Made by a program: the position numbers and the translations under genes. The notes beneath the pieces were generated by a model. That model worked only from the letters and a program-made list of their open reading frames with translations, ran no database searches and was not told where the DNA came from. DNA of 64,000 nt from an uncultured Ignavibacteria bacterium (lineage in GTDB: Bacteria > Zixibacteria > MSB-5A5 > JAABVY01 > JAHJOQ01), in the NCBI GenBank assembly GCA_964415885.1, contig CAYQCE010000009.1, forward strand, positions 3,338 to 67,337, given 5' to 3'. This document shows positions 31,312-49,263 of this stretch, one piece after another. How positions within the stretch are numbered: the first letter of the stretch is position 1; every line of letters starts with the position of its first letter.

Positions 31312-31587
31312 GTACGCACCAGGTTTCGCCTGATCCTGCGTCCGCGCTCTACGGCCGTTTGACCCCGCGCAACCCCAACGGTCCCTTCGCTTATGCGGCA
31401 CTGCGGTCAGATCAAACCCGCCAACGGCGCGCAGGATCTGACCGAACCCCACCAGGGATCTTCTGAAGCGCCCGAGGGCCGGGGGCCTTTTCTTTGGCAT
31501 CTCAGTGGCGGTTTTCTCTCCAAATCGGTTGACCTCGCGCGATACTGGGCTATATTCGTCGTGACCAGTTTGGCTGTTGCGGATGCG

Positions 31588-33891
31588 ATGAATAGAATGA
31601 CCCTCTCGATATTATGTTTGTGCCTTGTTCTCTGCCTGATTCCATCTGTCAGTGCAAGCGGCGTTGAGCATTTGAAAATCGATCCGGTTCGGGATTCGAT
31701 GGCGTTGCCGTGCAGATTCGATTTGTTAAGAAGCAAAGTGTTCTGGGACAGTCAGAGGCTCTCGAAGCGCACAGGTCTCTACAGAGCTGTGAGATGGAGG
31801 GTAGACGGTTCGATGGGCTCGTATGTGGCGGTGAACAACTGGCTTATCAGCGATGCGAGATCCGGCATCGTGCTCTACGACGATATCGGCTCGGAAAGCA
31901 CTATCGAACATGTTAATGTACCTACGTCGAAGATCAGCGATGTGGAGGCATATCATCTCGACGACGATTCGACTGCGGAGCTGATTGTCACCTACTCACG
32001 GGACGATACCGCATGGGTTGAGCTGTTCAAGATCTCGAGCGACGACTCGATGAAAGCATTCCTGGCTACGGGCGAGGATCGAGATGGCAGCGGGCATTGG
32101 GACGGCTCCGCAGCGATCATCGGGCACTATGATGTCAACGGTGACGGCATCGAGGAGATATTCTTCAGTGTTGACACCGGGTACGATCTCTATCCTCGTG
32201 GATTGGTATGTCTGGACTGGACAGATGGGAGCATCTTGTGGAACGTGCCGCTTTCGAGTCTTATTGGTAAGGAGACTTTTCGTATCGTGACGCGCCCGGA
32301 TGGTATGAACGTCATTACGTTCGAGATCGGTTCCAAAGCGAACAACGCTGTCGCGGGGGAGCTGACCGACAGGAGGTCGTATATGGCGTGTGCGAGCCTC
32401 GAAGGCGATCTCCTGTGGGCGATCCCGTCTGGCGAGAAATTCACGTCTGCGAAGCTTGCATACCTGGATTTCGACGGGGACGGATACGTCGAGGTCCTCA
32501 TGCAGTGGACCCCCGAGGCAGAGATGCTCTTATGCGAGCGGGAAGATGACTACAATCCGGAACACTACCTTCAGATTATCGACCTTTACGGGAATGTGAT
32601 CAGAAGGATGTCCCTGGGGAAGGGTTTGCAGGTGCGTTGCACGCAGGCGGTCGATATGCTCGACGGTAGGGGGATGCAGATTGTTGTGTCTTTCACTGAT
32701 AATTTGATACGAACCTATGACCTGAACCTCGAGCTTAAGCGCTCCGTTACTACATATACTTCATTCGTAATAGTAGGCTTCCATAACTTCACCGGTGATG
32801 AGACTCGAGAGTTTTTTGCAAAATCGGATGATTCGCGTATGTGGATTCTCGATGCGGATTTCGAACCGCTGGCCCAGATTGGTTTCGCCGAGCCGCTCGT
32901 CTATCCATCACTCTATCCTTTGGATGATGATGATCGGTACGGTATCATCGCGGGGATTGAGGCCGGACACGAATTTCGTCGAATGGTCGTAGCGGATCTC
33001 CCGTGGAACTATGTTTTTTACCGCAAGCCGTGGCTGGCGTTTCTTGCAGCTTTTGTGCCCATGTTTCTCATAGCCTCGTTCGCTGTGTTTCACGGCGCTC
33101 GTATGAGACATAAGAACAGACAGATATCGAAGGCTCGCGATGATCTCGATGCCGCCCTGATAGAGCTGAGAGATACGCAGCAGAAGCTCGTTGCCGCCGA
33201 GAAATTCCGGGAAGCCAGGAGTATCGCAGGAGGCTTTGCCCATGAGATACGTAACGCCTTGTTTCCGGCTCGCGGCATTCTGTCCCGCATGGCTCAAACT
33301 GTCTCCGGCGGAGAATCTGCGGATTTGAACGAGCTCGCATCGCACAGCCGCTTCGCGGACAGGTCCATAGCCAAAGCAATCGAGCTGACTACACTAATCA
33401 CCAAGTATACCAGGATCGAGTCTGAATATGATCCGCAGCGCGTCTTGATAGATCCGGTCATTCGGGATGTTCTGAGCGAGAACAGGATCCGCGTGGAAGA
33501 GATGGATGTCGAGGTGAATGTCTCCGGTGAATCAGATACCGAAGTTGTATCGAATCGCAAGCAACTCTATTCCGTACTGAACAATTTGCTTCTTAACAGC
33601 CTCGACGCTTTAGCGCAGTCTGATGAACGAGAAATCGAGATTCGCTGGAGGCGGAGCAAGGAGAATGGAGTGACTCTCGTCTGGCGCGATACCGGCTGCG
33701 GAATACCGGAGGAAAATCTCGGTCGGGTGTTCGAGTCCTTTTTCTCAACCAAGCCTGACAAGGGAACCGGGATAGGACTTGCGACAGTTAAGAAGATCAT
33801 TGAACTATATGAGGGGACAGTGACTGTCAGCAGTGATGGCCGGAACGGTGCGGTGTTTGAGATAACTATGAAAGACGCACTCGAAAGTTGA
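31588..33891 (+). CDS. Sensor histidine kinase with a large extracytoplasmic FG-GAP/beta-propeller-like sensor domain
   Basis: Start chosen at ATG 31588 (MNRMTLSILCLCLVLCLIPSVSASG signal/TM segment). The earlier ORF portion is non-protein-like. The ~500-aa periplasmic part carries DxNGDG-type repeats (…YDVNGDGIEEIFF…, …LDFDGDGYVEVL…). A TM segment follows (…WLAFLAAFVPMFLIASFAVF…), then HisKA (…FAHEIRNALFPA…) and HATPase_c (…DTGCGIPEENLGRVFESFFSTK…GTGIGLA…). Confidence 0.75.
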   Translation: MNRMTLSILCLCLVLCLIPSVSASGVEHLKIDPVRDSMALPCRFDLLRSKVFWDSQRLSKRTGLYRAVRWRVDGSMGSYVAVNNWLISDARSGIVLYDDIGSESTIEHVNVPTSKISDVEAYHLDDDSTAELIVTYSRDDTAWVELFKISSDDSMKAFLATGEDRDGSGHWDGSAAIIGHYDVNGDGIEEIFFSVDTGYDLYPRGLVCLDWTDGSILWNVPLSSLIGKETFRIVTRPDGMNVITFEIGSKANNAVAGELTDRRSYMACASLEGDLLWAIPSGEKFTSAKLAYLDFDGDGYVEVLMQWTPEAEMLLCEREDDYNPEHYLQIIDLYGNVIRRMSLGKGLQVRCTQAVDMLDGRGMQIVVSFTDNLIRTYDLNLELKRSVTTYTSFVIVGFHNFTGDETREFFAKSDDSRMWILDADFEPLAQIGFAEPLVYPSLYPLDDDDRYGIIAGIEAGHEFRRMVVADLPWNYVFYRKPWLAFLAAFVPMFLIASFAVFHGARMRHKNRQISKARDDLDAALIELRDTQQKLVAAEKFREARSIAGGFAHEIRNALFPARGILSRMAQTVSGGESADLNELASHSRFADRSIAKAIELTTLITKYTRIESEYDPQRVLIDPVIRDVLSENRIRVEEMDVEVNVSGESDTEVVSNRKQLYSVLNNLLLNSLDALAQSDEREIEIRWRRSKENGVTLVWRDTGCGIPEENLGRVFESFFSTKPDKGTGIGLATVKKIIELYEGTVTVSSDGRNGAVFEITMKDALES

Positions 33892-33921
33892 GATTCGTAT
33901 TGCTGTCTAAAGGGAGGAAAC

Positions 33922-35319
33922 TTGGATTCTGCAGTACCGAAGCCGAAAGTGATATTCGTCGACGATGAGCCCGAAGCGCTCGAGCTGTTCGAAATCATCT
34001 ATTCCGCAAAGTACGATGTGGTCCTCTGTTCGTCGGGAAAAGCGGCGATAGAGGCCGCAAGAACAAACCCGGACTCGGCCGTAGTTGTGATGGACATCAG
34101 GATGCCCAACATGGATGGAGTCGAGGCACTGAGAGAGGTCCTGAAGATTCTCCCGAAGGCGAAGGGGATATTCCACACGGCTTTTGCCGGGGAGTACGAC
34201 GAAGATGAGATTGACGCCAGGGAGAAGCCGTACGAGTTCGTTCTTAAGGGTGAATCCTCAACCCGGCTGGATCGTGCGATCCGTCACGGTGTAAATGAGT
34301 ATCTGCTCGAGAGTGACAACAGCCGACTGATCAAAATGGCACGCAGGGATTTCGGCCTCATCGGCACTTCCGAGGTCATGCGGCATCTCTACACGCAGGT
34401 CAAGAAGGTCTCCGCGAGTGACTGCAAGGTGTTGCTGCTCGGAGAATCGGGCACGGGGAAAACCAGGATCGCGAAGGCGATTCATGGCAACAGCTCGAGA
34501 GCGCAGGCCAGGTTTTACGCATATTCATGCACCGGAAAACCGACGGAGATACTCGAATCCGAGCTTTTCGGCCACTGCAAGGGTGCATTCACAGGTGCAT
34601 ATGAGGACAGGATCGGATGGTTCGAATACACGCATAAGGGCACGATCCTTCTGGATGAGATTGGCGACCTCGATCAGCATACGCAGACGAAGATTCTCAA
34701 GGTCGTCGATGAAGGCGCGTTCAGCAGACTCGGAGAGACGATTGAGCGGGTGACGGATGTCCGCCTGATAACAGCAACCAACAGAGACATAAATGCTCTC
34801 GTCGAATCGGGTACTTTCAGGGAGGACCTGTATTATCGTATCGAGGGTGTCAAGATAACGGTACCTCCGCTTCGAAAACGAGCCGAGGACATTCGCCTGC
34901 TTGTGAATCACTTCGTAGGTATCGAGGCCGAGGAGAAAGAGCTGCCACCGCTGATTGTCGACGAATCCGGCTACTCTGTCCTCGAGGACTATCACTGGCC
35001 AGGGAATGTTCGTCAACTTGAAACTGTAGTCGAGAGGCTTGTCCTAACCTCAAGCTCCAGTCTCGTGACCGGAGATGAGGTTCGCAATGCGCTGGAGCTG
35101 AACGCTGCGTCAGACGAGAGCGACGACCTCAAATACGATGAATTCATGAGACGCGCTGAGCGAAAGCTGATTCTGGTCGCCCTGCGGCGAGCTGATTTCG
35201 TGGTAGCACATGCGGCGCAGCTACTCGATATCAGCCGTCAGAGCTTGTTCCGCAAGATCAAAGAACACGGCTTGGATCTGGATTCGCTGCGGGACGGTGA
35301 TTCCGCGTCCGAAACGTAA
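33922..35319 (+). CDS. Sigma-54-dependent response regulator (NtrC family: REC - AAA+ sigma54 activator - Fis-type HTH)
   Basis: TTG start after GGGAGGA. REC domain (…VIFVDDEP…VVMDIRMPNMDG…), Walker A GESGTGKT, the sigma-54 contact motif GAFTGA and a C-terminal HTH (…AHAAQLLDISRQSLFRKIKEHGL). Confidence 0.85.
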   Translation: MDSAVPKPKVIFVDDEPEALELFEIIYSAKYDVVLCSSGKAAIEAARTNPDSAVVVMDIRMPNMDGVEALREVLKILPKAKGIFHTAFAGEYDEDEIDAREKPYEFVLKGESSTRLDRAIRHGVNEYLLESDNSRLIKMARRDFGLIGTSEVMRHLYTQVKKVSASDCKVLLLGESGTGKTRIAKAIHGNSSRAQARFYAYSCTGKPTEILESELFGHCKGAFTGAYEDRIGWFEYTHKGTILLDEIGDLDQHTQTKILKVVDEGAFSRLGETIERVTDVRLITATNRDINALVESGTFREDLYYRIEGVKITVPPLRKRAEDIRLLVNHFVGIEAEEKELPPLIVDESGYSVLEDYHWPGNVRQLETVVERLVLTSSSSLVTGDEVRNALELNAASDESDDLKYDEFMRRAERKLILVALRRADFVVAHAAQLLDISRQSLFRKIKEHGLDLDSLRDGDSASET

Positions 35320-35838: not shown

Positions 35839-36531
35839 TTATCTCGGATAACGGATCCCGTTCACGTAGGCTGAGTCGAGCACTATATCGCCGTTGTCGA
35901 TCAAACCAACACCCGGGGCATAATACTCTCGGTAGGCATCCGGGCTGTCAATATCCGGCTTGCCGTTAGCATCGACCGGCGTATATAGCAGCGTCATGCA
36001 GTTCACGAACGTTCCCGCAGTTACGGTGTGCGTGCTGTAACCGTCGAAGATCAGGAATCCCTCAATGTCGAATGTTATCAGCTGATTACGGATATCAGTG
36101 GCCACTGAACTGTAGTAATGCGGCCTGTCGGATCTGAGATTGAACGGAATCTCGAGTGCCGGCTCAACCGAAAGAACTTCTGTCACTTGTGGTGAAATTC
36201 TCACGCCGAGGAAGTGCTGTTCGAACGAGAATGTATCCAGGCTCCAGCATTCGAAGAACCCGCCGTTCTCTGTGATACCAATGCAATCGCCGGCCGGAGT
36301 GCCTTCGATGGTTATATCGGGCGCTACTTCGCGCACTATTTCCCAGCTCTCGCCTGATTCATTAGTGTAGGTGTAGTACCAGATATCACAGCTGTCGAGA
36401 TGGAAATACTCGATGGCGTCCGGGATTCCGTCACCGGGGTCGTTTCTCAGAATCTTGACCGTATCTTCCGAACCGCAGCCGTAAAGGACAACCAGGGACA
36501 ATGCTACAGCTACTGTGATTAGATAGCGCAT
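35839..36531 (-). CDS. Hypothetical lipoprotein
   Basis: N-terminus MRYLITVAVALSLVVLYGC has a lipobox-like L-Y-G-C. No recognisable domain downstream. Confidence 0.55.
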   Translation of the reverse strand: MRYLITVAVALSLVVLYGCGSEDTVKILRNDPGDGIPDAIEYFHLDSCDIWYYTYTNESGESWEIVREVAPDITIEGTPAGDCIGITENGGFFECWSLDTFSFEQHFLGVRISPQVTEVLSVEPALEIPFNLRSDRPHYYSSVATDIRNQLITFDIEGFLIFDGYSTHTVTAGTFVNCMTLLYTPVDANGKPDIDSPDAYREYYAPGVGLIDNGDIVLDSAYVNGIRYPR

Positions 36532-36583: not shown

Positions 36584-37099
36584 TCAACTGCTTATACTGA
36601 GTTCATACCCTTCGAGTTCGTCGGATTTCGCCAGTATCTCATCTATACGGCGATCGAAATTGCCGTATGCCTGGGAGGATCCCCAGAGCTTGACAGTCTT
36701 CGAACCGTGATCGACGCGCATCCTGCCGCCGCCGACTATTCTCCATTCGGGATCGCGAAAAGTTATCGTGTTTTCGCCCTTGTAGATCGAAATGCCCATC
36801 TCTTCAGCAAATTTCTCGACAATGTGAGCATGGTAGGTGAAGAGTGCGGTAGGCGCGAAGACTATAAACTGATCGTCGCCCCTTCGGAGCTGAACGAATT
36901 TGCCTTCGCGTATACCGGACGGGCTGTTATTGTCTTCGATTTCTTCCGGCGGGAAATAGTCAATGAACCGAGCCAAATGACGCTCCTTTCTCTGTTGCCG
37001 TGAATGCAATCTAAACTCAGCTTCTACCGTCATGCAACACAAAAACCGCGCGAAAGTTGTCGGATTGAGGCTTGCGGGCAAACGGAGACTCGATCTCAT
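36584..37099 (-). CDS. Hypothetical protein, translationally coupled to the upstream EamA transporter gene
   Basis: The ATG at 37099 overlaps the TGA of the EamA gene (ATGA). Composition is protein-like and no family was recognised. The competing plus-strand ORF 36554-37003 was judged less likely. Confidence 0.5.
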   Translation of the reverse strand: MRSSLRLPASLNPTTFARFLCCMTVEAEFRLHSRQQRKERHLARFIDYFPPEEIEDNNSPSGIREGKFVQLRRGDDQFIVFAPTALFTYHAHIVEKFAEEMGISIYKGENTITFRDPEWRIVGGGRMRVDHGSKTVKLWGSSQAYGNFDRRIDEILAKSDELEGYELSISS

Positions 37100-38028
37100 C
37101 TGAGGAACAGCAGCACGATTCCGCCGACCGTTATCAATGCTCCGATGACCGCGCGAGCAGATGGATACTGGTGGTACACGAAGATACTAACCGGAATGAT
37201 GACGACAGGCACGGATGCCATGATTGCCGCCGCTACGCCGGTTTCAGTATGTCTGACCGCAATGAGCGACATCCAGATTCCAAGAAACGGACCCGCGATG
37301 GCTCCGCCGAGAGTGTAGAGCATGGCATCGCGTTTCTTCATGGATCTCAATGCTCTCGCGGCCTTTCCGATCAACGAGGAGTATATCCAGATGACGGCGC
37401 AGGAGGCGACCATCCGGATCATGCTTGCTTCTATAGGCGTCAGAGTGTCCGCCATGGCGTGCTTTGCTATCACGAGCCCGACAGCCTGACCCAGAGCCCC
37501 AAGTATTGCGAAAGCTATTCCGAGTGCCTTGGGGCCGGCATCCAGATCACCCTCTTTCAGCTTCCACTCCGATTGCCGTTCGGCTGTGACCCAGGCTATG
37601 CCAATAAACGCCACAACGATACCGGAGACTGCCATTATGCCGAGCTTCTCGCTGAGAAAGAACCATGACATGACTGCGGTCATGAGCGGCCAACTCGCGA
37701 AAATGAGTGTGGCGAGCCGAGGACCGAGAATCACGAGTGACCGAAAGAGAAAAGAGTCTCCAAGAACCAGTCCGGCAATTCCACTGATTGCCAGTAATAT
37801 CATTTGGTAGTTGGAGGCGTGTGTCGGGAATAATTTCCCCGTTGTAATGTAGACGACTGTGCCGATCATGAAGATCGCCATCGGAATCCGAATCATGTTG
37901 ACATAGAAAGAGCCGATCCGTCTCGATGCAGCCGTGAAGAAGACGGCGGTTAGCGACCAGCAGAATGCTGTGGCGAGAGCTGCTATTTCACCGGCGAATT
38001 GTCCCATTTGATCTCCAGAAGCCAGCAA
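37096..38028 (-). CDS. EamA/DMT-superfamily transporter (10-TM permease)
   Basis: 310 aa and almost entirely hydrophobic. Two repeated 5-TM halves are typical of EamA domains. Confidence 0.8.
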   Translation of the reverse strand: MLASGDQMGQFAGEIAALATAFCWSLTAVFFTAASRRIGSFYVNMIRIPMAIFMIGTVVYITTGKLFPTHASNYQMILLAISGIAGLVLGDSFLFRSLVILGPRLATLIFASWPLMTAVMSWFFLSEKLGIMAVSGIVVAFIGIAWVTAERQSEWKLKEGDLDAGPKALGIAFAILGALGQAVGLVIAKHAMADTLTPIEASMIRMVASCAVIWIYSSLIGKAARALRSMKKRDAMLYTLGGAIAGPFLGIWMSLIAVRHTETGVAAAIMASVPVVIIPVSIFVYHQYPSARAVIGALITVGGIVLLFLR

Positions 38029-38493: not shown

Positions 38494-41400
38494 ATGAGAG
38501 GGAAGCTACTGTTATCCGCACTATTCGTGATGCTGATGTTGCTTTCAACATCGGTATTCGCAGCCGGCAATCTGCCGGATTCGCTCACAACCAAATTGGC
38601 GCTCAACGAATCAAACCTCCAGACTCTGCTCGATGATTTAGGGTACGATATCGATGTCGACGAGGACGAGCTCGGCACCGAGGTTTTCTGTGCCCTACCG
38701 GGCCAGAATCTCGCAACTATTATTCTCGAGGTTGCCGGTTCGGCATCGAGCGCGAGTTCAGGGTGGTATGTAGCAGGCGATAGCAGCTCGCTAAACGAGC
38801 TCTTTACCGGTGCTGCCGGTCCCGGTGACTCGGTTTCGTTTGCGATCGGGTCAGGGGATTCTGTCGGGTTCTATCTCGATGCCAGAGACTACGGGAGCCA
38901 GACCGATCTCTGGTTTACCGAGAACTGGATGAACGACGACGGTTACGATCATGCATGGGTCTTTGCTACCGGCGTCCCGCATGAGTACCTTATCGCCTGG
39001 GAAGATCTGGTCGACGGCGGTGACGAGGATCACAATGATCTCGTAATCAAGATTCGGTTCGCAAATCAGGTTCCGACTGTCACACTACCCGACGATTTCA
39101 CGGAATCTCAGTGTACACCAGCCGATATTTGCTTTGATGTCGACGCCGCCGATGCGAATTGCGAAGGCGATACTATAACACTCGAGATGGTTTCGGGATA
39201 CGGCTCCTTCACCACCGTGACGGACCAGGCCTCGATCTCGACCAGTCATTGTTTCACACCGACCGGCTCGGGTACGTACGAGTTTATCTTCAAGGTCACA
39301 GATGTTGTTGGCGACGAAGGCTTTGACACGCTCACCGTAACGGTTGCCCAGGATGATGAGCCACCGGTGGCAATATGCCCATCGGATATTGTCGTCGACA
39401 ACGATCCGGGCGAATGCGGCGCGATTGTCAGCTTCACAGTCGATGGTACAGACAACTGCGCTGGGGTAACGACGACAGCCACGCCAGCTTCCGGTTCGAG
39501 CTTCCCGATCGGAACGACGCAGGTGGAAGTTGTAGCGACTGATGCGGCAGGAAACGCAGATACCTGCAACTTCGATGTTACAGTGAATGATACAGAAGCT
39601 CCGGTCGCAGACTGCCCGGCGGACATTACGGTCGACAACGATCCGGGCGAATGCGGCGCGATTGTCAGCTTCACAGTCGATGGTACAGACAACTGCGCTG
39701 GGGTAACGACGACAGCCACGCCAGCTTCCGGTTCGAGCTTCCCGATCGGAACGACGCAGGTGGAAGTTGTAGCGACTGATGCGGCAGGAAACGCCGATAC
39801 CTGCAACTTCGATGTCACAGTGCTCGAGACAGAGCCTCCGGTTCTGACCTGCCCGACCGATATCATCGTGGCGAATGATCCGGGTCAGTGTGGCGCGGTA
39901 GTGACATTTGATCCAACAGCAACGGAGAATTGCGGCAGCGCGACTATCACTGCAAATCCGGCCAGCGGTTCTGTTTTCCCGATCGGGATCACCACTGTTG
40001 AGGTAATCGCTACCGATGGTTCCGGAAACGCGGATACGTGCTACTTCGATGTCACAGTAAATGACACCGAAGCTCCCGTTGCGGAATGCCCATCCGACAT
40101 TTCGATCGGCAACGATCCGGGCGAATGCGGCGCGGTCGTAGACTTCACTCCGACGGCGAACGATAACTGCGCCGGTGTGACGGTTTCATCGACACCCGCG
40201 AGCGGTTCGTTCTTCGATGTCGGCACGACAACGGTTGAGGTTATAGCCTTTGATGCCGCCGGTAATGCCGATACTTGCTACTTCGATGTTACAGTGCAGG
40301 ACCTCGAAGATCCAATTCTGCAGTGCTCCGGTACTATCGAAGTTGACAATGATCCCGGCGAATGCGGTGCGATCGTAAATTTCACCTCGACGGTCACTGA
40401 CAACTGCCCGGGTGCTACGGTTACCTGCGATCCGGCTTCCGGTTCGTTCTTCGATGTCGGCACGACAACGGTGAATTGTACGGCTATCGATGCAGCAGGG
40501 AATGAATCAGTCTGTTCATTCGCTGTCATAGTCAATGACACCGAGAATCCGATGATTGCATGTCCTCCGGATGTGCAGCTCGATTGCGGTGATCCGACCG
40601 ATCCCGCAAACACCGGCGAGGCCACAGCAACCGACAATTGCGATACAGATTTAGACATTACATATACCGACGTTCAGGTCGATAACGTGATAACGAGGAC
40701 CTGGACAGCTACGGACGATGAGGGCAACAACGCCTCATGCGATCAGACTATAACGCTCGGCGACGGCACGCCGCCGGTCTGTTCCGTGCCTAACGATACC
40801 ACGATATTCCAGTGCGACTTCGCAGAGGTTCAGTTGCCGGTTTCGGCAACTCATGATGCCACCTGCGAGGTTATTAGCGGTCCTGGCGTGATCTCCGGCG
40901 GCTACTGGGTCTACACGCCGACATCAGAGGGTACGGTCAATGTCACCGTCCGCTGCACCGATGAGTGCGATTATTTCTGCGAGGCGAGCTTCTCCGTGAC
41001 CTTCGATCTGAATGCCGCTCCAGTTTGCAGCACTCCTCCAGCCGAGGATTTCTTCGTCTGCGAAGATACGACGTTTAACCTGGAATTCCTGAGCGAGGAC
41101 GAGGACGGCAATCTTGCCGGCTGTACAATGGTCTCAGGTCCGGGGACTTTCGACCCGGTAACCAATGTGTGGACATTCACAACCAGCGGCACCGGTACTT
41201 ACGCGGCGACTTTCGAGTGCGTGGATGAGTGCGGCGCCACCTGCACGGGAGAGCTCGCGGTGAATGTCACCGTGAATTCAGCGCCCGTTTGCAGTGTGCC
41301 GAACGACACTACTGTGTTCCAGTGTTCACCTGCTCAGGTCGCTTTCCCGTTCAGTGTAACTGACACCGATGGTAACATTGTCGACAGTGCAATCGTCTCC

Positions 41401-44088
41401 GGTCCGGGGGCGCTCGTGGACGGCAACTGGGTATTCACTCCCTTAGCGGCTGATACGTTTAGCGTGACATTACGCTTTGAAGATGAATGCGGCGCATTCT
41501 GTGAGGAGACATTTAACGTGTACTTCGAGATGAATGTTGCGCCGGTTTGCGATCTTCCTGCCTCCGATGAGTTCTTCGTCTGCGGCGACACTACATTCAG
41601 CTTCCCGGTATCCGCCACCGATGCCGATGACAACCTGTCCGGCTGCACGCTGGTATCAGGCGACGGCACGCTCGATCAGGGTAACTGGACATTTACCACG
41701 AGCGGTCCGGGTGTCTATTCAGCCGAATTCCTCTGTGAGGATGAGTGCGGGGAGACATGCGGCGGGACAGTTGAGGTCACCGTAAATCAGAATACCGCAC
41801 CGAGCTGCGAGTTTCCGGGCGATACGGCCATCTTCCTTTGCGAGTCGCAGGAAGTATGCCTCCCGGTTTCCGGTTCCGATCCGGACGATAATCTCGTGAG
41901 TTGCGAGGTGGTCAATGACAAGGGCGGTATTGAAAATGGCGAGTGGTGCTACACTCCGACACAGGACGAGGTCGTTGAGGTCACTGTTCGCTGCACCGAT
42001 GAGTGTGGAGCGTACTGCGAGTCTGACTTCGCAATCACATTCGACATTAATGAGGAGCCCGTCTGCGACATACCGGACGGCGGCGAGTTCTTCGCCTGCT
42101 CGGATACTACGTTCAGCTTCCAGATCGGCGCCAGCGATCCGGACGGCAACCTGAGCGGGTGTACGAAGATATCCGGCCCGGGAACCTACGATGGCACGAC
42201 CTGGACATTCACGACCAGCGGAAGCGGCCAGTATATCGGTGATTTCGAGTGTACCGATGAGTGCGGACTGACGTGCAGCGGCTCGATAGTTGTCGACTTC
42301 ACGCTCAACTCCGCACCGGTCTGCGATCTTCCGAGCAGCCAGATGATAGGACAGTGCGAGCCGATTCCGGTTGCGCTGCCGGTTGCTGCTACGGACGTCG
42401 ATGACAATCTCGCATCATGCCAGGTGGTCAGCGGTCCGGGTACGATTCAGAACGGTCTGTGGCAGTACACACCGACCGGTTCCGAGACTGTCAACGTTAC
42501 GGTTCGTTGCACAGATGAGTGCGGTGCCTACTGTGAGGATAGTTTCGAGATCACGATAGACATCGGTCAGGAATACTGCGTACCACCGCTTTTGACCATT
42601 GAGAAGACGCACGGTGCGATTCAGGGTCGAATAGATACACTCAAGATAACAATGGAAAACAGCCAGCTTCAGATGGGCGGGTTCGACTTCCTGATCGCCT
42701 ACGACGCCTCGGCCCTGACGGTTTCGGACGTTTTGCCGGGTCAGTTGCTCGTTGATTGCGGATGGGAGTACTTCACATACCGTCACGGCCCGTTCGGCCA
42801 GTGTGACGGGCCATGCCCGAGCGGATTTCTCCGCATAGTGGCGATGGCCGAGCTCAATGACGGTCCGAACCATCCGGATTGTTATGGTCCGAGCACGACC
42901 GATCCAAGCGAGCTGGTTACGATACTCTTCTATGTCACCAACGATAGAACATATGAATGTCAGTATGCTCCGGTTGAGTGGTTCTGGTTCGACTGCGGCG
43001 ACAACTCGATCTCCAATGTCGAGGGTACTGTGCTCTATGTCGATAAGATCGTCTACCGCTTCGAGGGCGATGTCTACTGGGATGAGGAAGACAACGTCGA
43101 CTATCCCGAGTCCGAGCGTATTCCGCATGTCGGTGCGCCGGATGCCTGCCTTGAGCCGCTGCCCGGAAAGCCTGGGGCAATACGGTTCCTCGAGTTCAAG
43201 AACGGCGGTGTGGATATCATCTGTGCGGATTCGATCGATGCTCGCGGTGATGTTAACCTCAACGAGGTCGCGAATGAGATCGGTGATGCTGTTCTCTTCA
43301 CTAACTACTTCATCTACGGTATGGCCGTATTCACGCTGAATGTGGAGGGCCAGATTGCGGCATCGGATGTGAATGCCGATGGTCGTCCGCTCACCGTTGG
43401 TGATCTGGTCTACCTCGTCAGGATAGTCACCGGCGATGCCGCCCCGTACTCGAAAATCACCGGATTCGAGCACGAGGCCGTGCTCGGTATGAACGAGACC
43501 GCGACCGGGCTTGATCTCTCGCTAAGCAGTGCAACCGATATCGGCGCTGTCTATCTTACCTTCGATGCACGTGATGCGACCGTTTCCGACGTTACTCTCA
43601 CGAGTGAACTCGGAGATATGAGCGTCAAGCATGGTGTTGTTGAAGGCGAGCTTCGCGTGCTGATCTTCGACATCGGCGAGGGCAGGATACGCTCCGGCAG
43701 CAGCGATATCCTGAACATAGTCGCCGAAGGCTCACTCGAGCTGATTGACTATGAAATAGTCGATTATTACGGCGCTGATGTTAGCGTCTCGCTGAAAAAC
43801 GAGATCGTACCGACAGACTTCAAGCTCGCGCAGAATTATCCTAACCCGTTCAATCCGGAAACGGAGATTTCGCTCTATCTGCCGGAGACTACCGACTGGT
43901 CGATAGCGATCTACAACATCGCCGGTCAGAAGGTAAAGACCTTCACCGGATTCAGTTCTGCGGGATCTGTCACCGTTCGCTGGTTCGGTCGGGATGACAA
44001 CGGAGCCGAGGTTGCCTCGGGTGTCTACTTCTACAAGGCGACTGCCGGCAATTACAGTGAAACGAAAAAGATGCTTCTGCTCAAGTAG
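38494..44088 (+). CDS. Giant secreted surface protein: DUF4114-like + HYR repeats + Cys-rich repeats + cohesin-dockerin-cohesin + T9SS C-terminal sorting domain
   Basis: AGGAG RBS and a signal peptide (MRGKLLLSALFVMLMLLSTSVFA). A DUF4114-like segment is present (…WMNDDGYDHAWVFATG…EDLVDGGDEDHNDLVIKI). 5-6 HYR-like repeats follow (CPxDIxVDNDPGECGAIVxFT…). Seven alternating Cys-rich ~87-aa repeats follow (APVCSVPNDTTxFQC…VRCTDECGAYCE…). Two cohesin-like modules (…LKITMENSQLQMGGFDFLIAYDASALTVSDV…) flank a dockerin-like segment (…SDVNADGRPLTVGDLVYLVRIVTG…). The C-terminus (…KLAQNYPNPFNPETEISLYLPE…IAIYNIAGQKVKTF…SGVYFYKATAGNYSETKKMLLLK) is a textbook Por/T9SS tail. Confidence 0.9.
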   Translation: MRGKLLLSALFVMLMLLSTSVFAAGNLPDSLTTKLALNESNLQTLLDDLGYDIDVDEDELGTEVFCALPGQNLATIILEVAGSASSASSGWYVAGDSSSLNELFTGAAGPGDSVSFAIGSGDSVGFYLDARDYGSQTDLWFTENWMNDDGYDHAWVFATGVPHEYLIAWEDLVDGGDEDHNDLVIKIRFANQVPTVTLPDDFTESQCTPADICFDVDAADANCEGDTITLEMVSGYGSFTTVTDQASISTSHCFTPTGSGTYEFIFKVTDVVGDEGFDTLTVTVAQDDEPPVAICPSDIVVDNDPGECGAIVSFTVDGTDNCAGVTTTATPASGSSFPIGTTQVEVVATDAAGNADTCNFDVTVNDTEAPVADCPADITVDNDPGECGAIVSFTVDGTDNCAGVTTTATPASGSSFPIGTTQVEVVATDAAGNADTCNFDVTVLETEPPVLTCPTDIIVANDPGQCGAVVTFDPTATENCGSATITANPASGSVFPIGITTVEVIATDGSGNADTCYFDVTVNDTEAPVAECPSDISIGNDPGECGAVVDFTPTANDNCAGVTVSSTPASGSFFDVGTTTVEVIAFDAAGNADTCYFDVTVQDLEDPILQCSGTIEVDNDPGECGAIVNFTSTVTDNCPGATVTCDPASGSFFDVGTTTVNCTAIDAAGNESVCSFAVIVNDTENPMIACPPDVQLDCGDPTDPANTGEATATDNCDTDLDITYTDVQVDNVITRTWTATDDEGNNASCDQTITLGDGTPPVCSVPNDTTIFQCDFAEVQLPVSATHDATCEVISGPGVISGGYWVYTPTSEGTVNVTVRCTDECDYFCEASFSVTFDLNAAPVCSTPPAEDFFVCEDTTFNLEFLSEDEDGNLAGCTMVSGPGTFDPVTNVWTFTTSGTGTYAATFECVDECGATCTGELAVNVTVNSAPVCSVPNDTTVFQCSPAQVAFPFSVTDTDGNIVDSAIVSGPGALVDGNWVFTPLAADTFSVTLRFEDECGAFCEETFNVYFEMNVAPVCDLPASDEFFVCGDTTFSFPVSATDADDNLSGCTLVSGDGTLDQGNWTFTTSGPGVYSAEFLCEDECGETCGGTVEVTVNQNTAPSCEFPGDTAIFLCESQEVCLPVSGSDPDDNLVSCEVVNDKGGIENGEWCYTPTQDEVVEVTVRCTDECGAYCESDFAITFDINEEPVCDIPDGGEFFACSDTTFSFQIGASDPDGNLSGCTKISGPGTYDGTTWTFTTSGSGQYIGDFECTDECGLTCSGSIVVDFTLNSAPVCDLPSSQMIGQCEPIPVALPVAATDVDDNLASCQVVSGPGTIQNGLWQYTPTGSETVNVTVRCTDECGAYCEDSFEITIDIGQEYCVPPLLTIEKTHGAIQGRIDTLKITMENSQLQMGGFDFLIAYDASALTVSDVLPGQLLVDCGWEYFTYRHGPFGQCDGPCPSGFLRIVAMAELNDGPNHPDCYGPSTTDPSELVTILFYVTNDRTYECQYAPVEWFWFDCGDNSISNVEGTVLYVDKIVYRFEGDVYWDEEDNVDYPESERIPHVGAPDACLEPLPGKPGAIRFLEFKNGGVDIICADSIDARGDVNLNEVANEIGDAVLFTNYFIYGMAVFTLNVEGQIAASDVNADGRPLTVGDLVYLVRIVTGDAAPYSKITGFEHEAVLGMNETATGLDLSLSSATDIGAVYLTFDARDATVSDVTLTSELGDMSVKHGVVEGELRVLIFDIGEGRIRSGSSDILNIVAEGSLELIDYEIVDYYGADVSVSLKNEIVPTDFKLAQNYPNPFNPETEISLYLPETTDWSIAIYNIAGQKVKTFTGFSSAGSVTVRWFGRDDNGAEVASGVYFYKATAGNYSETKKMLLLK
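39394..39815 (+). repeat. Near-identical tandem duplication (period 237 bp) inside the HYR region of the giant gene
   Basis: Bases 39394-39578 and 39631-39815 are identical except for 2 substitutions (about 185 of 237 bp). They encode two identical 79-aa HYR units (DNDPGECGAIVSFTVDGTDNCAGVTTTATPASGSSFPIGTTQVEVVATDAAGNADTCNFDVTV). Confidence 0.85.
40771..42570 (+). repeat. Seven tandem Cys-rich ~87-aa repeats (two alternating subtypes) within the giant gene
   Basis: Repeats begin (S/A)APVC(S/D)(V/L)P… and end …C(T/E)DECGA(Y/F/T)CE…(V/I)(N/G). Protein-level identity is about 40-60% and DNA has diverged. Confidence 0.8.
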
Positions 44089-44158: not shown

Positions 44159-44212
44159 CGACAAATCTCTTGCGGGATCATTCCGACGGATTATATTGTA
44201 GCCCGAGAAAAT

Positions 44213-44296
44213 GCCGAAGTGGTGAAACAGGTAGACACGCTGTGTTCAGGGCGCAGTGTCCTTGCGGGCGTGGGGGTTCGAATCCCCCCTTCGGCA
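44213..44296 (+). tRNA. tRNA-Leu (anticodon CAG)
   Basis: Acceptor stem GCCGAAG/CTTCGGC, anticodon stem CTGTG/CGCAG with loop TTCAGGG (anticodon CAG), a long variable arm, and T-arm GGGGGTTCGAATCCCCC. Confidence 0.8.
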
Positions 44297-44383
44297 TTTG
44301 AAACTCCCCCAGTAAAGGCAATCATTGCATTTGACTTGTACCGAGAAGACCATTGATGTTGGACTGTTCGACCAGAGAGATAG

Positions 44384-46108
44384 TTAGTTTGATTCGCTGA
44401 ATTTCGCGAGTCTTTTGATGAAGTTACGGAGCTTGTCGGCACCGACAGCTTTTCCGAGTTCCTTTGCAATTGCTCTGGAGCGCCGCACGTGTGTCTGAAG
44501 CGTGTCTTTCATGCGGATTTCAGCGATCGTGACTCCCGGCATCGCCAGTGCCTTCGCCACCTCTGCAGTATAGTCGCTGGAGAGGAGCATGTAGTTGGCT
44601 CCGATGCCTTTCGCGAACTGTTCGAAGTCGACCTGTGATGTCTTTGTGGCGTGCCCTCTGCCGTAGCGCGAGAGCTGCTGGATGCGGATCTGTCCGAGAT
44701 TGTTGTCATTGACGAGCAGAACAAGCAACTGGAGGTTCTCTCGGACTGCGGTCGTCAGCTCCGTACCGGTCATGAGCATTCCGCCGTCACCAACCACGAG
44801 TACGACCGGAATATCCGGCCGGGCTGCCTTCGCGCCGACGGCCGCCGGTGCACCGTATCCCATCGACTGAAAGTCAGACGGTGCGAGCATACCGCGTGCG
44901 CACTCGACACTGAACCGCGTTCGCACGAGAAGCTGATGGAGACCGGAGTCTGTGACAACGACGCATTCCTTCGGTAGCATCTTTCGCAATACGTCTACGA
45001 CATGCGGTTCCTTTTCACCACCGCCGCTTTTCGGTACTGGCAGGAGCTTGAATGCCCGTTCTCGATCCAGCTCATGCTGTAACTTGATGTCTTTCATTTC
45101 AGCATCAGTCCATGCCGATTTCAAGTCGGTACCGGTAATCGCCTGGCTCAGAGCTTGTGCAAACGACGGGATGTCTGCTTCGATGGCGATCGATGCGGGG
45201 TAGTTGGCGTTGAGTACATTCTTTGATGCATCAATATGGATGAGCTTTTCCTGTGGCAGGTTCAAGCGATAACCTGCGGAGCCATTGTGAGAGAACTTGC
45301 ATCCGAGAGCGAGTACGAGATCGCTCTTGCCGAGTACACGGTTGACGGTCTTGATTCCCCATGAGCCGAAGTCGGAGCAGACGGCCAATGGATGGCTTTC
45401 GGGTACGATTCCTCGACCGGAACAGGTGGCAATAACTGGCGCATTCAATTTCTCTGCGATTTCGACGATCTTCTTCGCGCATCCGGCTGCCCCTTGACCA
45501 AGGAAGAGCGCAACTCGGGATGAACTTTCGATTGATGCTATAACTTGCTCGATTTGCTCTCTGAGGACCTTCGACTCCTGTATGAGGCCATCACGCGGTT
45601 CGCTCCGATTCGCGGGTTCCTCCACAATACGATTGTCTATTTCGACTATCACCGGCCCAGGTTCGCCGGATAGCGCGGCGTAACATGCCTCGGCTACATT
45701 CTGTTCGGCATCCTTCGCATTGTCCAGCCGTATGTATGCCTTGGAGATACTCCTGGAGATCGCCTCGTGATCGATTTCCTGCAGCCCGAACGCCATTTTC
45801 TGTTCGTCGGGCGCCTTGACGAGCAGGTGCACGAATGCGGCGGAGTCGTGGTATGCTTCGGCTATTCCCGTGGATGCAAGCGTGAACCCGGGACCCTGTA
45901 TTGTCGCGACAGCGCCAAGTTTCCCGGACGAGCGATAGTAGCCATTTGCAGCCATTGTTGCGCCGATCTCTGTTGTGGTCAGCACGGTGCGGATCCCGGA
46001 TTTTCGTACGCATTCGAAGAATGATACTGACTGTGTGCCGGGGATGCCGAAGACAATCTCGATTCCCGCACGCTTCAGGCACTCACAGATAAAATCACCG
46101 TTTGTCAT
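44384..46108 (-). CDS. Thiamine-diphosphate-dependent enzyme (acetolactate-synthase-like carboligase/decarboxylase family)
   Basis: N-terminal Pyr domain (…IVFGIPGTQSV…), a central domain and a C-terminal ThDP-binding motif (…VVGDGGMLMTGTELTTAVRENLQLLVLLVNDNNLGQI…). 574 aa. Confidence 0.85.
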   Translation of the reverse strand: MTNGDFICECLKRAGIEIVFGIPGTQSVSFFECVRKSGIRTVLTTTEIGATMAANGYYRSSGKLGAVATIQGPGFTLASTGIAEAYHDSAAFVHLLVKAPDEQKMAFGLQEIDHEAISRSISKAYIRLDNAKDAEQNVAEACYAALSGEPGPVIVEIDNRIVEEPANRSEPRDGLIQESKVLREQIEQVIASIESSSRVALFLGQGAAGCAKKIVEIAEKLNAPVIATCSGRGIVPESHPLAVCSDFGSWGIKTVNRVLGKSDLVLALGCKFSHNGSAGYRLNLPQEKLIHIDASKNVLNANYPASIAIEADIPSFAQALSQAITGTDLKSAWTDAEMKDIKLQHELDRERAFKLLPVPKSGGGEKEPHVVDVLRKMLPKECVVVTDSGLHQLLVRTRFSVECARGMLAPSDFQSMGYGAPAAVGAKAARPDIPVVLVVGDGGMLMTGTELTTAVRENLQLLVLLVNDNNLGQIRIQQLSRYGRGHATKTSQVDFEQFAKGIGANYMLLSSDYTAEVAKALAMPGVTIAEIRMKDTLQTHVRRSRAIAKELGKAVGADKLRNFIKRLAKFSESN

Positions 46109-46133: not shown

Positions 46134-47183
46134 TCACCGACGGCGAATACCGGCTTTTCTCAGAACCGCAGTTCCTCGAGACGAAACCCGTTCGAGTATT
46201 CGACTCGATGCGCATTTCAGCCCGTTTTCTTTGCTGACAACGAGATTCGTCACGAGCCTGCCGCCCAGTTGGCTTTTGAACTTTGCTACCGGATTGAGAG
46301 CCGCGTCCGTGAGATCATTAGCCTTGTAGCCGAGCTCGGAGAGCGACTGAAACACGCGCCACCGGAGACAGGGGTTCACGCCGTGCTTCATGTACTCATC
46401 GCTCGCAGCAGCGCTCACCGTGTGAGTTACGGGATGCTCTCCGAGGAGAACGAGTTGTGTTGCTACCGACTTGCCGTTGTTCGTGCGCAGGTGATACAGC
46501 CTGCAGAGGTCGTTTGCCTTCAGAGTGTCGAAGTACTTCCTGAAGTCCTTCTTCGGAAGATAAAGCGGAGCGCCCTTTCGCTCATGAATTTCCCTGTGGA
46601 GATCGAAGAAGCTATCGAAATCGTCATCCTCGCTGAACTCGAATTCTCCGGACTCGCACCGCCTCACGAGCCGCCGAAGATTGTGCGCGATCGTGGACCA
46701 GGTTTTGTCCAGGTCGTCGATGTCAACTTCGTAGCTGTATCCGAGGTCGATTTTCCAGCCTCGCGATGCGAAGACGCGGATATCATCGATAGTATGCCGG
46801 TTTCGGAATCGAATTCGATCATAGTGCTGTTGCGAGAGCGCCTCTTCGAGGGCATCCATGGCTTCAAGCGCGCGGGATGTCGCCTCCGATGGGTACTTCG
46901 TAGGATGATCCTGCAGCACGATCCCGTTGTAGTAGAGAAGCAGTCTGTTGGTGACTTCGTCGATTATGCCGCGCTTATGTTCATACAGTGCAATCCCGCC
47001 GAGCATCTCTTCGCCTTTGCAGGCGGCGAGCACTTTGAAATTTCCCCCGGTAACGCCGCAGAGCGCATCGAGATATTCGGTCCGGCTGTATACACTTCCG
47101 GCCGGAGAAGTAACTACCAGATTATTCCATTCGGGGAACTGCTCCTCGGACAGTATTTTCGTTTCGATCTTCTTCTTGCCCAT
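46134..47183 (-). CDS. FemAB-like / BioF2-like GNAT-fold acyl(aminoacyl)transferase (Acetyltransf_6-like)
   Basis: ~350 aa with the duplicated-GNAT FemAB-like layout (…YLDALCG…GGIALYEHKR…LLYYNGIV…; …GKSVATQLVLLGEHPVTHTVSAAASDEY…NPCLRWRVF…). Its start overlaps the ATP-grasp gene's stop (TAATG). Confidence 0.65.
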   Translation of the reverse strand: MGKKKIETKILSEEQFPEWNNLVVTSPAGSVYSRTEYLDALCGVTGGNFKVLAACKGEEMLGGIALYEHKRGIIDEVTNRLLLYYNGIVLQDHPTKYPSEATSRALEAMDALEEALSQQHYDRIRFRNRHTIDDIRVFASRGWKIDLGYSYEVDIDDLDKTWSTIAHNLRRLVRRCESGEFEFSEDDDFDSFFDLHREIHERKGAPLYLPKKDFRKYFDTLKANDLCRLYHLRTNNGKSVATQLVLLGEHPVTHTVSAAASDEYMKHGVNPCLRWRVFQSLSELGYKANDLTDAALNPVAKFKSQLGGRLVTNLVVSKENGLKCASSRILERVSSRGTAVLRKAGIRRR

Positions 47184-48517
47184 TAAAGCCTGACCTTACC
47201 GTGCGTTTCTGCCGATTCGTCCGACATTCCCAGCCTGTTCTTAACAGACCACATAATGCGCCTGGCTGTTCCGACGAGAGACGGCATTGGGTCCCTTAAT
47301 GACAGATTCGCCTTCTTTGCGGTAATCCAGGATCCAATCCAACTGCTCACACTCAGTTTCCCGCTTTTTACCATCTCCAGCCCGGCGAAGAGATCATAGT
47401 ACGGATAGACAAGACCGTGTCCAGTACGATAGTTGCCGACTGTCTCGACATCCCGTTCGAGCGCATCCTGATACGCCATCAGCGCCACAGGCACACGGCA
47501 AATCTCTGCGAACCAGATGTACCACCACGGGCGAACATTGACCTCGAGCAGCTTGAACTCGTTGTCTCGCGGGTCAAGCTTGAATTCGGCGGAGAAAATG
47601 CCCCGGTAGCTGGTTTTCTCAAGAAGCATCATAAGCGAGTCGTGTGCGGCCTGCACCTCCGAGATCGGCACACTTACAACGAAAGAACTGTTGCCGAAGT
47701 CCGGCGGATACATTCTGAGCCTGTGACGCGCGAACGACGCGCGACAGACTCCATGCCGGTCGACGAAACCATCGATGAAATAGTGATTTGAGGCTGGTCC
47801 GGGAATGTACTCCTGATAGACCGCCTCCATTCCGAGAGAGCTGACTCGATTGTATTTGTCGAGGGCGTCTTCGTACGACTTCAGTCGAAACGCCTTCACT
47901 CTGAATGTCTTGAAGAACTTCTCTGAATCTGTTGGCTTGAGGAATGAGTTGGTTATCCGGTCTCTTGCCACCGCATCGAGGTCTGATTTCTCGGAGAGAA
48001 TCAGTGTGGAAGGATGTGGTATTCCGAGCGAGACCATGAGCTCGGCAAGACTGGCCTTGTCCATGAGCTGCTTTACTACGCTCTCCTCCGGGAGGCTGAA
48101 TCTGTAGTTTGATCGAAGTTCAGTCGGAAGGGCGGACAATGCCCGTGTCCAGCTATCGCTGCATGGCATGATCACGAGGCGTCTAAATGGAAGCGATTTC
48201 AGGTAGCCGGCGAGATCGCCGTCAGGACACGTTTCCTTTCTTTCGACCGGTACCCAGTTGAACCACCTTGAGGCACGGACGAAGCCGGACTGCCGTCCGG
48301 CTGCGTAGCATTTGATACCGTGTGATGCAAGAGACCGCATTACCCCGAGCGCTGTGATACCGGTACCCAGTATCAGAACCGGAGGATTTGTATCTTCCGA
48401 TTTGGCAGCCCCTGAACTATGTCCCAAGCTCGGATTCACGCAAGCCTCGTAACGCACCGAAGTGAAGTATCCGAAATGGATTGATGCCACAGACCGGACA
48501 GTGCTCAAGCATAGCAA
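47183..48517 (-). CDS. ATP-grasp family ligase (D-aspartate-ligase / PylC-like carboxylate-amine ligase); start codon uncertain
   Basis: Pre-ATP-grasp Gly-rich N-terminus (…PPVLILGTGITALGVMRSLASHGIKCYAA…), a central B-loop region and the C-terminal …EFKLLEVNVRPWWY… Mg/ATP motif. The TTG at 48517 is the longest-ORF start. An in-frame GTG/TTG roughly 20-25 codons downstream is equally plausible. Confidence 0.65.
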   Translation of the reverse strand: MLCLSTVRSVASIHFGYFTSVRYEACVNPSLGHSSGAAKSEDTNPPVLILGTGITALGVMRSLASHGIKCYAAGRQSGFVRASRWFNWVPVERKETCPDGDLAGYLKSLPFRRLVIMPCSDSWTRALSALPTELRSNYRFSLPEESVVKQLMDKASLAELMVSLGIPHPSTLILSEKSDLDAVARDRITNSFLKPTDSEKFFKTFRVKAFRLKSYEDALDKYNRVSSLGMEAVYQEYIPGPASNHYFIDGFVDRHGVCRASFARHRLRMYPPDFGNSSFVVSVPISEVQAAHDSLMMLLEKTSYRGIFSAEFKLDPRDNEFKLLEVNVRPWWYIWFAEICRVPVALMAYQDALERDVETVGNYRTGHGLVYPYYDLFAGLEMVKSGKLSVSSWIGSWITAKKANLSLRDPMPSLVGTARRIMWSVKNRLGMSDESAETHGKVRL

Positions 48518-48777
48518 TCATGACTGTAGGTCCCAAAGGACCACAAGATAGGTCATCGCTCTGCCGGTCGCAAGCTTTTACTCTTTCGTCGGCCGTTGGG
48601 GTAAGTTCCTCCACACGAAGTTCATGTGGAGTCACGCGATGCTGCCAAATGTGGTGAAAACACTCCCGTATAGGTCCCGAGTGTGTTGTGTTGGCTTGGT
48701 CGTATTCGACGGCACAAAGACTCTCTGAGATGAGGCGTTTCCGCCTCATCCGCCGGGTCGTTCATCAGGATGTTTAC

Positions 48778-49263
48778 CTACCACTCGTATGCGTAAGCCG
48801 GGGTAGTGTTGAGCTTCAAACCGACAGTATCGGCGCCGTCAACAACAGGCTGAACCTGATAGATGATGAACCTCTCTCCGCCGTTTACCCACCCGCCGGA
48901 TATGGCGGTTTTCGGATTGTACATGACCCAGTTACCGGTTGCACGCCATGACCAGCTTCCATCGGGCGTGTTCACGGTTGTTATCGGGTCGTTGCCGCCC
49001 TCGTAGTTGGTTGGTGTGTTTGAGAGCAGGTCAAACGGATTCTGGAGCTGAATCGATTCACCCTCGACGAATTGCTTGGCGACATAGATCGACATTGCAG
49101 ATTCGAGGTTGGAGACCATGGATGCCACCGAGGCTTTTTCGGCCTCTTCGGTAACTTTGAAGAGCTTGGGAATCGCAACCGCTGCGAGGATGGCCAGCAC
49201 GACAATGATAACCACCAGTTCGATCAAAGTGAATCCGCGACTGCTTTTGAGCATTCTTGACAT
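48778..49263 (-). CDS. Type IV pilin / pseudopilin (prepilin-type N-terminal cleavage/methylation domain)
   Basis: MSRMLKSSRG|FTLIELVVIIVVLAILAAVAIP… is the class III signal peptide with Gly-1, Phe+1 and Glu+5. 161 aa. No pilB/pilC/pilD/pilM-Q genes lie within the window. Confidence 0.8.
   Translation of the reverse strand: MSRMLKSSRGFTLIELVVIIVVLAILAAVAIPKLFKVTEEAEKASVASMVSNLESAMSIYVAKQFVEGESIQLQNPFDLLSNTPTNYEGGNDPITTVNTPDGSWSWRATGNWVMYNPKTAISGGWVNGGERFIIYQVQPVVDGADTVGLKLNTTPAYAYEW

Follow-up and report, generated by a model that had tools for sequence, protein, structure and literature searches.

The gene at positions 38494..44088 (+) of a 64-kb stretch of contig CAYQCE010000009.1 (64,000 nucleotides, hereafter "the window") encodes a 1864-amino-acid (aa) protein that, on balance, we take to be a fibrillar surface adhesin of a Zixibacteria-like bacterium of the Fibrobacterota–Chlorobiota–Bacteroidota (FCB) group, delivered by a type IX secretion system (T9SS), carrying a lectin-like tip and rooted through its base in a family-wide cohesin–dockerin network. 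Our confidence in the network in trans is lower than our confidence in the overall adhesin picture. Central to this proposal is the C-terminal region of 500 aa, in which a cohesin (Coh1), a dockerin-like module (Doc), a second cohesin-like module (Coh2) and a T9SS C-terminal sorting domain (CTD) follow one another, and which comparison of homologues indicates to be one fixed and conserved cassette rather than an ad hoc scaffold. The original prediction, made from this DNA alone, had recognised two cohesin-like modules flanking a dockerin-like segment, an assignment borne out by fold, motif and family evidence at sub-threshold Pfam scores, and had read the whole as a surface-anchored scaffold able to recruit dockerin-bearing partners. 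The surface location is well supported, by virtue of the CTD, but the recruiting scaffold was too cellulosome-like a picture for a protein with its own dockerin, a fixed cassette and an adhesin-type passenger, and should give way to that of an adhesin with a family-wide cohesin–dockerin base.

The cohesin–dockerin–cohesin cassette and its family

A search with aa 1360-1864 recovered more than 3800 proteins (90% clustering), nearly all at 99% query coverage and 47-58% identity, and every named source among them belonged to Zixibacteria, GN15 or the FCB group. An exhaustive HMMER search conducted without the CTD yielded about 1700 clusters at 50% identity, 832 of them at E ≤ 1e-30, with protein lengths ranging from 447 to 3626 aa. 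The exact order Coh1-Doc-Coh2-CTD was found in 226 of the 267 proteins analysed, and pairwise identity was highest in Doc (70%), the most conserved part of the cassette, followed by Coh1 (56%), the CTD (55%) and Coh2 (33%). The passengers attached to this cassette vary, and include He_PIG, Big_9, PKD, cadherin-like, fn3, laminin-G and HYR_4C domains, or no domain at all. One homologous locus (L004) displays the same layout as the adhesin gene, with a DUF4114 domain, an immunoglobulin-like (Ig) stalk and the cassette. Within the literature that could be searched, Zixibacteria were not mentioned in any paper alongside dockerin or T9SS.

The first module of the cassette, Coh1 (aa 1361-1578, 42574..43227, +), is an elaborated cohesin of about 215 aa, against about 140 for the usual cohesin; it carries insertions, along with eight cysteines that are invariant or nearly so in the family. 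Its score against the Pfam cohesin profile PF00963 was 22.7 bits, below the cut-off of 24.1, and covered profile positions 4-55 of 139 only, while among 51 full-length homologues 20 matched the same profile at E ≤ 0.01, the best of them at 4.5e-8. An AlphaFold model of the 505-aa C-terminal region had a mean pLDDT of 81, with values mostly above 85 in the Coh1 blocks, and a Foldseek search with the Coh1 model ranked cohesins first (1g1k_A, TM 0.80), the predicted fold resembling type I cohesins of C. cellulolyticum and C. thermocellum. The modelled domain forms the nine-stranded jelly-roll beta-sandwich of cohesins. Structure comparison of the models also spoke against the possibility that the predicted cohesins are unrelated beta-sandwiches: Coh1 and Coh2 each show the cohesin fold. 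For Coh2 (aa 1656-1772, 43459..43809, +), the assignment is by modelled fold alone, as PF00963 gave no match and a profile–profile comparison of Coh1 with Coh2 indicated no homology (probability 2%).

Between the two lies Doc (aa 1579-1655, 43228..43458, +), recognised by motif and by family profile and tied to Coh1 by a short conserved linker, CADSIDARGD. It comprises a pair of D-x-N-x-[ND]-[GE] loops with a helix after each, and thus shows the duplicated-segment organization of dockerins: the two loop/helix segments are DVNLNEVANEIGDAVLFTNYF and DVNADGRPLTVGDLVYLVRIV, which open with DVNLNEVANEIGDAV and DVNADGRPLTVGDLV, respectively. The top PDB match of the Doc family profile was a type I dockerin (3ul4_B, E 0.015), and the alignment covered the two Ca-loop/helix repeats. 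Against PF00404 (Dockerin_1), the module scored 16.1 bits, below the cut-off of 22.9, and one of the 51 homologues matched this profile at E ≤ 0.01. Because of this sub-threshold score and the low confidence of the model in this region, we call aa 1579-1655 dockerin-like, with moderate confidence. As a working description, Coh1 and Doc are best termed cohesin–dockerin-like on the basis of predicted fold and motif, rather than curated members of the two Pfam families.

Departures from the standard cassette bear on how its modules may interact. More than one dockerin module occurs in 25 proteins, and most of those mapped contain two or three tandem Coh1-Doc-Coh2 triads, while P0203 has the composition Coh1x4-Doc and P0126 starts with the same arrangement. 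A complete Zixibacterial genome (OY760907.1; locus L008, 1-4419) includes a tandem array of four small cassette genes, with minimal forms such as a 296-aa Doc-Coh2-CTD protein without Coh1 and a 434-aa Coh1-Doc-Coh2 protein without CTD next to a full cassette of 518 aa. The fourth gene is cut by the locus edge, and lipoprotein-type signals are present in the three with complete 5' ends. Two adjoining cassette genes were also found in one Zixibacteria metagenome-assembled genome (L006, 1269-3929 and 4486-6879), the second of which encodes an N-terminal canonical Pfam cohesin, cadherin-like and Big_9 domains, and then Doc-Coh2-CTD without Coh1. The unequal numbers of Coh1 and Doc and their separability are what one would expect if they bind in trans.

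Other members were noted in the course of this survey. Among scaffoldin-looking proteins (P0126-P0132, P0137 and P0203), several combine a CTD with two or three tandem triads, and in some four tandem Coh1 precede a single dockerin; P0127 originates from a 2.6-Mb Zixibacteria contig (UCD94658.1). In another locus (L081), a close relative lies near a GAPDH-PGK-TIM cluster, and such a cluster is also present in the window. Within L081 (5720-12400), which is part of a 1.9-Mb contig, the cassette gene P0010 is preceded on its own strand, at a distance of about 600 bp, by a 1225-aa PKD/cadherin-repeat gene, and the stop-to-stop open reading frame (ORF) of P0010 reaches upstream to 9578. A frameshift may have divided what is a single long gene.

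Export signals, tip and stalk

Good support for a T9SS-dependent position on the cell surface comes from the sequence of the CTD (aa 1773-1864 plus stop codon, 43810..44088, +), which was identified as type A through TIGR04183 (43.1 bits against a cut-off of 23) and PF18962 (31.3 against 27), alongside FlgD_ig (33.8 against 27). The match spans aa 1782-1861 of 1864, i.e. curated cut-offs are passed at the extreme C-terminus. The type B signal CHU_C (PF13585) scored 18.5-20.9 bits, below its cut-off of 27, and a type B or SprB-like cargo was rejected on that basis. T9SS has been reported for the FCB superphylum (PMC11205867, PMC9170169), of which Zixibacteria are members, and the CTD proteins ascribed to Zixibacteria number in the thousands. 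At the opposite end, direct reading of the translation suggests a Sec signal peptide of the signal peptidase I (SPI) type (aa 1-24, 38494..38565, +; MRGKLLLSALFVMLMLLSTSVFAA|G), with a basic n-region (MRGK), a hydrophobic core of 18 residues and a c-region of small residues (VFA|AG), and with no lipobox cysteine in the sequence.

The mature protein begins with a tip domain (38566..39069, +) that includes a DUF4114 domain (aa 110-189). PF13448 was matched over profile positions 3-84 of 85 with 27.5 bits for the whole protein and 32.1 bits for the segment (cut-off 27), and the tip domain contains an acidic motif of the Ca-binding type, WEDLVDGGDEDHNDLV. A word-index search with the N-terminal region returned four homologues, two of them named Zixibacteria, which are too few to describe a distribution and probably reflect a prefilter effect. 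DUF4114, at the tip of adhesive structures, has been tied to Ca-dependent sugar binding both in PilY1.1 of M. xanthus (PMC9109919) and in the mannose-binding protein of Acanthamoeba (PMC11934332). By analogy, the domain probably acts here as a Ca-dependent glycan-binding, lectin-like tip. As in these two proteins, it occupies the distal N-terminal end, in the present case with the acidic motif, and in the Acanthamoeba protein it is likewise followed by Cys-rich repeats. These carriers of DUF4114 are otherwise entirely different from the adhesin described here, PilY1.1 being a pilus tip protein and the Acanthamoeba protein a membrane protein of a eukaryote.

Between tip and cassette, sequence profiles suggest a stalk of about 15 Ig-like domains, namely seven Cys-stabilised PKD/Big_9 domains, six HYR-type domains and one further Big_9-like domain. 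The latter (aa 193-288, 39070..39357, +) scored 23.5 bits against Big_9 (cut-off 23.6) and aligned with the seven Cys-rich repeats at 22-31% identity, as would a divergent eighth copy of this repeat. It is followed by five HYR domains (aa 289-685, 39358..40548, +), detected by PF02494 above cut-off in five stretches (E 3.5e-58, 194.3 bits), and by a sixth, HYR_4C-like domain (aa 686-760, 40549..40773, +) for which PF23237 gave 22.1 bits, below its cut-off of 27; seven HYR_4C copies are found in P0152, a cassette-bearing relative. Tandem Repeats Finder detected a period of 237 bp in HYR copies 1 and 2 (1.8 copies, 39394-39822) with 98% DNA identity, which reflects either a very recent tandem duplication or miscounted copies in the assembly.

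The remainder of the stalk is made of seven Cys-rich Ig repeats of PKD/Big_9 type, of about 86 aa each (aa 761-1360, 40774..42573, +), defined by alignment and profile. These begin at aa 761, 843, 931, 1017, 1103, 1189 and 1275, measure 82-88 aa and alternate between subtypes A and B. Six of the seven terminate in C-x3-C-x3-C, and each includes five to six cysteines except repeat 3, which has only four. A profile built from eight repeat copies matched the PKD domains of clostridial collagenases (4jrw, 2y72 and 4aqo, E 4e-6 to 5e-6), with the repeat cysteines replacing residues of the final two PKD strands and their connecting loop in the profile alignment, and a two-repeat segment exceeded the Pfam Big_9 cut-off (28.2 bits against 23.6). 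Relatives including P0133, P0165, P0129 and P0268 share the motif C-x-[DE]-[DE]-C-x3-C and are annotated as PF17963/PF18911 (Big_9/PKD_4); P0133, the only one of the four with a source name, is Zixibacterial. The three matches returned by a word-index search with a pair of Cys-rich repeats are too few to establish a distribution, again probably due to a prefilter effect. Taken together, these comparisons suggest that the Cys-rich repeat belongs to a common kind of stalk domain, of which it is a lineage-specific subtype stabilised by disulfides. A new fold was rejected given the clear PKD/Big_9 homology, as was a haem or metal site, which is unlikely because the repeats have neither a CxxCH motif nor any His.

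Much of this architecture had been anticipated. The single ORF with a signal peptide was placed at its exact coordinates, and the DUF4114-like module, the five to six HYR repeats and the Por/T9SS sorting domain were each recovered by the profile searches, the sixth HYR copy under its cut-off. The seven alternating repeats of about 87 aa were likewise confirmed in number and in their two subtypes, with the divergent eighth copy as an addition. The suggestion that these repeats are an undescribed extracellular module is contradicted by the collagenase PKD match and the above-threshold Big_9 score.

The gene in its genomic context

The ORF is uninterrupted from its ATG start, its GC content (0.52-0.56) matches that of the remaining window, and an identical protein has been deposited in NCBI on a 77,181-bp contig (P0125); an artefact or pseudogene was rejected on these grounds. 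The encoded protein is acidic, with abundant Thr, Asp, Val and Gly, and its 82 cysteines lie almost all inside the Cys-rich repeats and Coh1. The gene is solitary at its locus: upstream is a divergent EamA transporter gene (37096-38028, −), and downstream are a tRNA-Leu(CAG) (44212-44297, +), located 124 bp past the stop codon, and then a convergent gene for a thiamine pyrophosphate (TPP) enzyme (44384-46108, −). A further tRNA-Leu(GAG) is found at 15026-15107. The neighbourhood scan, which covered 40 ORFs of the 64-kb window, identified housekeeping, regulatory or unannotated genes and no operon partner of the adhesin gene. Among all six-frame ORFs in the window, BLASTP and hidden Markov models of Coh1, Doc, Coh2 and the CTD, used to look for paralogues, returned only the gene itself.

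Several other features of the window were noted. A 631-aa protein (29350-31245, +) contains Peptidase_M43 and He_PIG Ig domains together with a Ca-binding thrombospondin type 3 repeat, and is probably secreted; no CTD or dockerin was detected in it. It is preceded by a gene for a 1080-aa Ser/Thr kinase with many tetratricopeptide (TPR) repeats (25857-29099, +) and followed by genes for a histidine kinase and for a sigma-54 response regulator (31393-35319, +), this kinase/regulator cluster being 3-12 kb upstream of the adhesin gene. On the other side, a 161-aa N-methyl (type IV pilin-like) protein is encoded beside ORFs of 444 and 163 aa without Pfam match (47183-49789, −), which may represent a locus for a pilus or pseudopilin. 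No Pfam family was matched by four ORFs with lengths of 230-282 aa (35839-36531, −; 60097-60834, −; 61101-61949, +; 62754-63596, +), and the first of these starts with a lipoprotein-like signal, LVVLYGCGS.

Possible roles of the cassette

From the domain identities and family distribution described above, we infer binding, its direction and its partners as follows. The adhesin would be exported by Sec, after which its type A CTD would be recognised by T9SS and the protein moved across the outer membrane, remaining attached to the cell surface, as established T9SS biology would predict. From the cell outwards, the order would then be Coh2 as a spacer, Doc as a Ca-binding module, the disulfide-rich Coh1, the Ig stalk, and at the distal end DUF4114, by analogy the Ca-dependent glycan-binding tip. 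The cassette would work in trans, with the Doc of one member binding Coh1 in a second member, which may be a scaffold-like one with several Coh1, and T9SS cargo would in this way be tied into a surface cohesin–dockerin network of which the adhesin is one adhesive spoke. Observations in favour of binding in trans are the four Coh1 modules of P0203 and P0126, the array of minimal genes in the complete genome, and the side-by-side cassette genes of L006. Because the protein has its own dockerin and an adhesin-like passenger, and because the cassette is combined with many different passengers, the likely partners are other family members and not enzymes, and the adhesin is equally likely to be the recruited or the recruiting partner.

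A number of points weigh against this proposal. Coh1 and Doc both remain under Pfam thresholds in this protein, and Coh2 is without a sequence-level link to any cohesin. Each Doc loop carries a one-residue insertion relative to the canonical one (giving 13-residue loops), and in the AlphaFold model Doc appears as three helices with a pLDDT of only 36-77. For the tip, DUF4114 membership is indicated by a borderline score, comparison with the PDB returned only noise and no solved homologue, and the lectin role is drawn by analogy from two papers. No T9SS core component was identified among the 40 window ORFs scanned, and the gene is not accompanied by any further CTD, cohesin or dockerin ORF in the 64-kb window. 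Finally, the fixed module order, the short invariant Coh1–Doc linker, the mostly 1:1 composition and the phylum-wide conservation of Doc would also fit a rigid intramolecular unit.

Such a unit could be a structural pedestal, in which Coh1-Doc-Coh2 forms one rigid body with Doc clamped on its own cohesin and nothing bound in trans, and which would serve as a stiff, Ca-stabilised, membrane-proximal stalk linking the CTD anchor to the passenger. Beyond the order of the modules and the very short, nearly invariant linker, this is consistent with the tandem repetition of entire triads as units, with the 1:1:1 composition of the 226 members, and with Doc varying least of all modules across the phylum (70% identity, compared with 33% in Coh2), unlike cellulosomal dockerins, which are divergent between species. 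We nevertheless consider a pedestal unlikely: four Coh1 accompany one Doc in P0203 and P0126, Doc-Coh2-CTD genes without Coh1 adjoin Coh1-bearing genes, and the second L006 protein places a canonical Pfam cohesin far from its Doc, i.e. the modules can occur apart and in differing numbers, as would be the case for trans partners.

A cellulosome-like scaffoldin, whose two cohesins would recruit dockerin-bearing enzymes such as glycosidases or peptidases as proposed for Cloacimonadota, is more improbable still. In its favour are the two cohesin-fold modules and the T9SS anchor, and a close parallel is the scaffoldin-like protein of Ca. Stygibacter (Cloacimonadota), with many tandem cohesins, the carbohydrate-binding modules (CBMs) CBM2/3, a T9SS CTD and dockerin-tagged enzyme partners (PMC8542988). 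Both proteins come from candidate phyla of the FCB group and combine cohesins with a T9SS CTD and a proposed surface anchoring, but in the present protein the two cohesins are dissimilar and, rather than standing in tandem, are separated by the protein's own dockerin, and domain searches found no CBM or catalytic domain. The N-terminal 1360 aa resemble the stalk and tip of an adhesin, no dockerin-bearing ORF besides the gene itself is present in the window, and no enzyme passenger was seen among the 270 relatives examined (passengers being Ig-like, HYR, lectin-like or absent), although no enzyme census was made. As in clostridial adaptor and anchoring scaffoldins, cohesin and dockerin are joined in one polypeptide that in principle both binds and is bound. 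Unlike these, however, the protein is from a Gram-negative source, has a T9SS anchor instead of a surface-layer homology (SLH) or sortase anchor, is built with short, conserved linkers instead of long, flexible ones, is associated with no evident enzymes or CBMs, and resembles known cohesins and dockerins at levels under Pfam thresholds.

Cohesin and dockerin proteins outside cellulosomes were reportedly surveyed by Peer et al. in 2009 (FEMS Microbiol Lett 291:1). Known examples include a cohesin of Archaeoglobus fulgidus (PDB 2xdh) and proteins of anaerobic methanotrophic (ANME) archaea (PMC9012536). Compared with these, the present family stands apart by its fixed Coh1-Doc-Coh2 triad fused to a type A CTD, by the size and conserved cysteines of Coh1 and the longer dockerin loops, and by its extent of about 1700 clusters with named members in Zixibacteria, GN15 or the FCB group.

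The remaining architecture resembles the fibrillar adhesins of Bacteroidota with a type A CTD, which share the succession of signal peptide, distal binding domain, Ig-repeat stalk and C-terminal anchor signal, and HYR and Big_9/PKD repeats are standard stalk domains of fibrillar adhesins and large T9SS cargo. What distinguishes the protein from ordinary T9SS fibrillar adhesins is the triad inserted between stalk and CTD, along with the Cys-rich repeats of the stalk. The gliding adhesins of Bacteroidota are also large, repetitive, Ig/HYR-rich T9SS cargo, and the protein described here shares these traits. Yet a SprB-like adhesin moved along the surface by the T9SS/gliding motor is very improbable, considering the type A rather than CHU_C-type CTD, the absence of gld, sprF or porP-like genes among the nearby window ORFs scanned, and a cohesin–dockerin base without counterpart in SprB.

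Extending the proposal of an adhesin with a trans-acting base to the family as a whole, we tentatively suggest, as a possibility and not as our expectation, that the triad is the building block of an undescribed T9SS-coupled surface-assembly system, apparently centred on Zixibacteria, that would form a self-assembling lattice or daisy chain. Adhesins, multi-triad or multi-Coh1 scaffolds and minimal lipoproteins would dock mutually through Ca-dependent Coh1–Doc binding, and the system, if real, would parallel cellulosome anchoring in a Gram-negative and non-cellulolytic setting. Zixibacteria are uncultured, and the adhesin gene belongs to a very large family in which T9SS cargo has a fixed cohesin–dockerin–cohesin base. 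If this base docks proteins, cohesin–dockerin assembly would be a general organiser of Gram-negative surfaces, beyond cellulose degradation, and would offer a new orthogonal cohesin–dockerin pair for protein engineering. For the bacterium itself, a DUF4114 domain held out on a stalk of about 15 domains is a concrete candidate for attachment to glycans of particles or of other cells.

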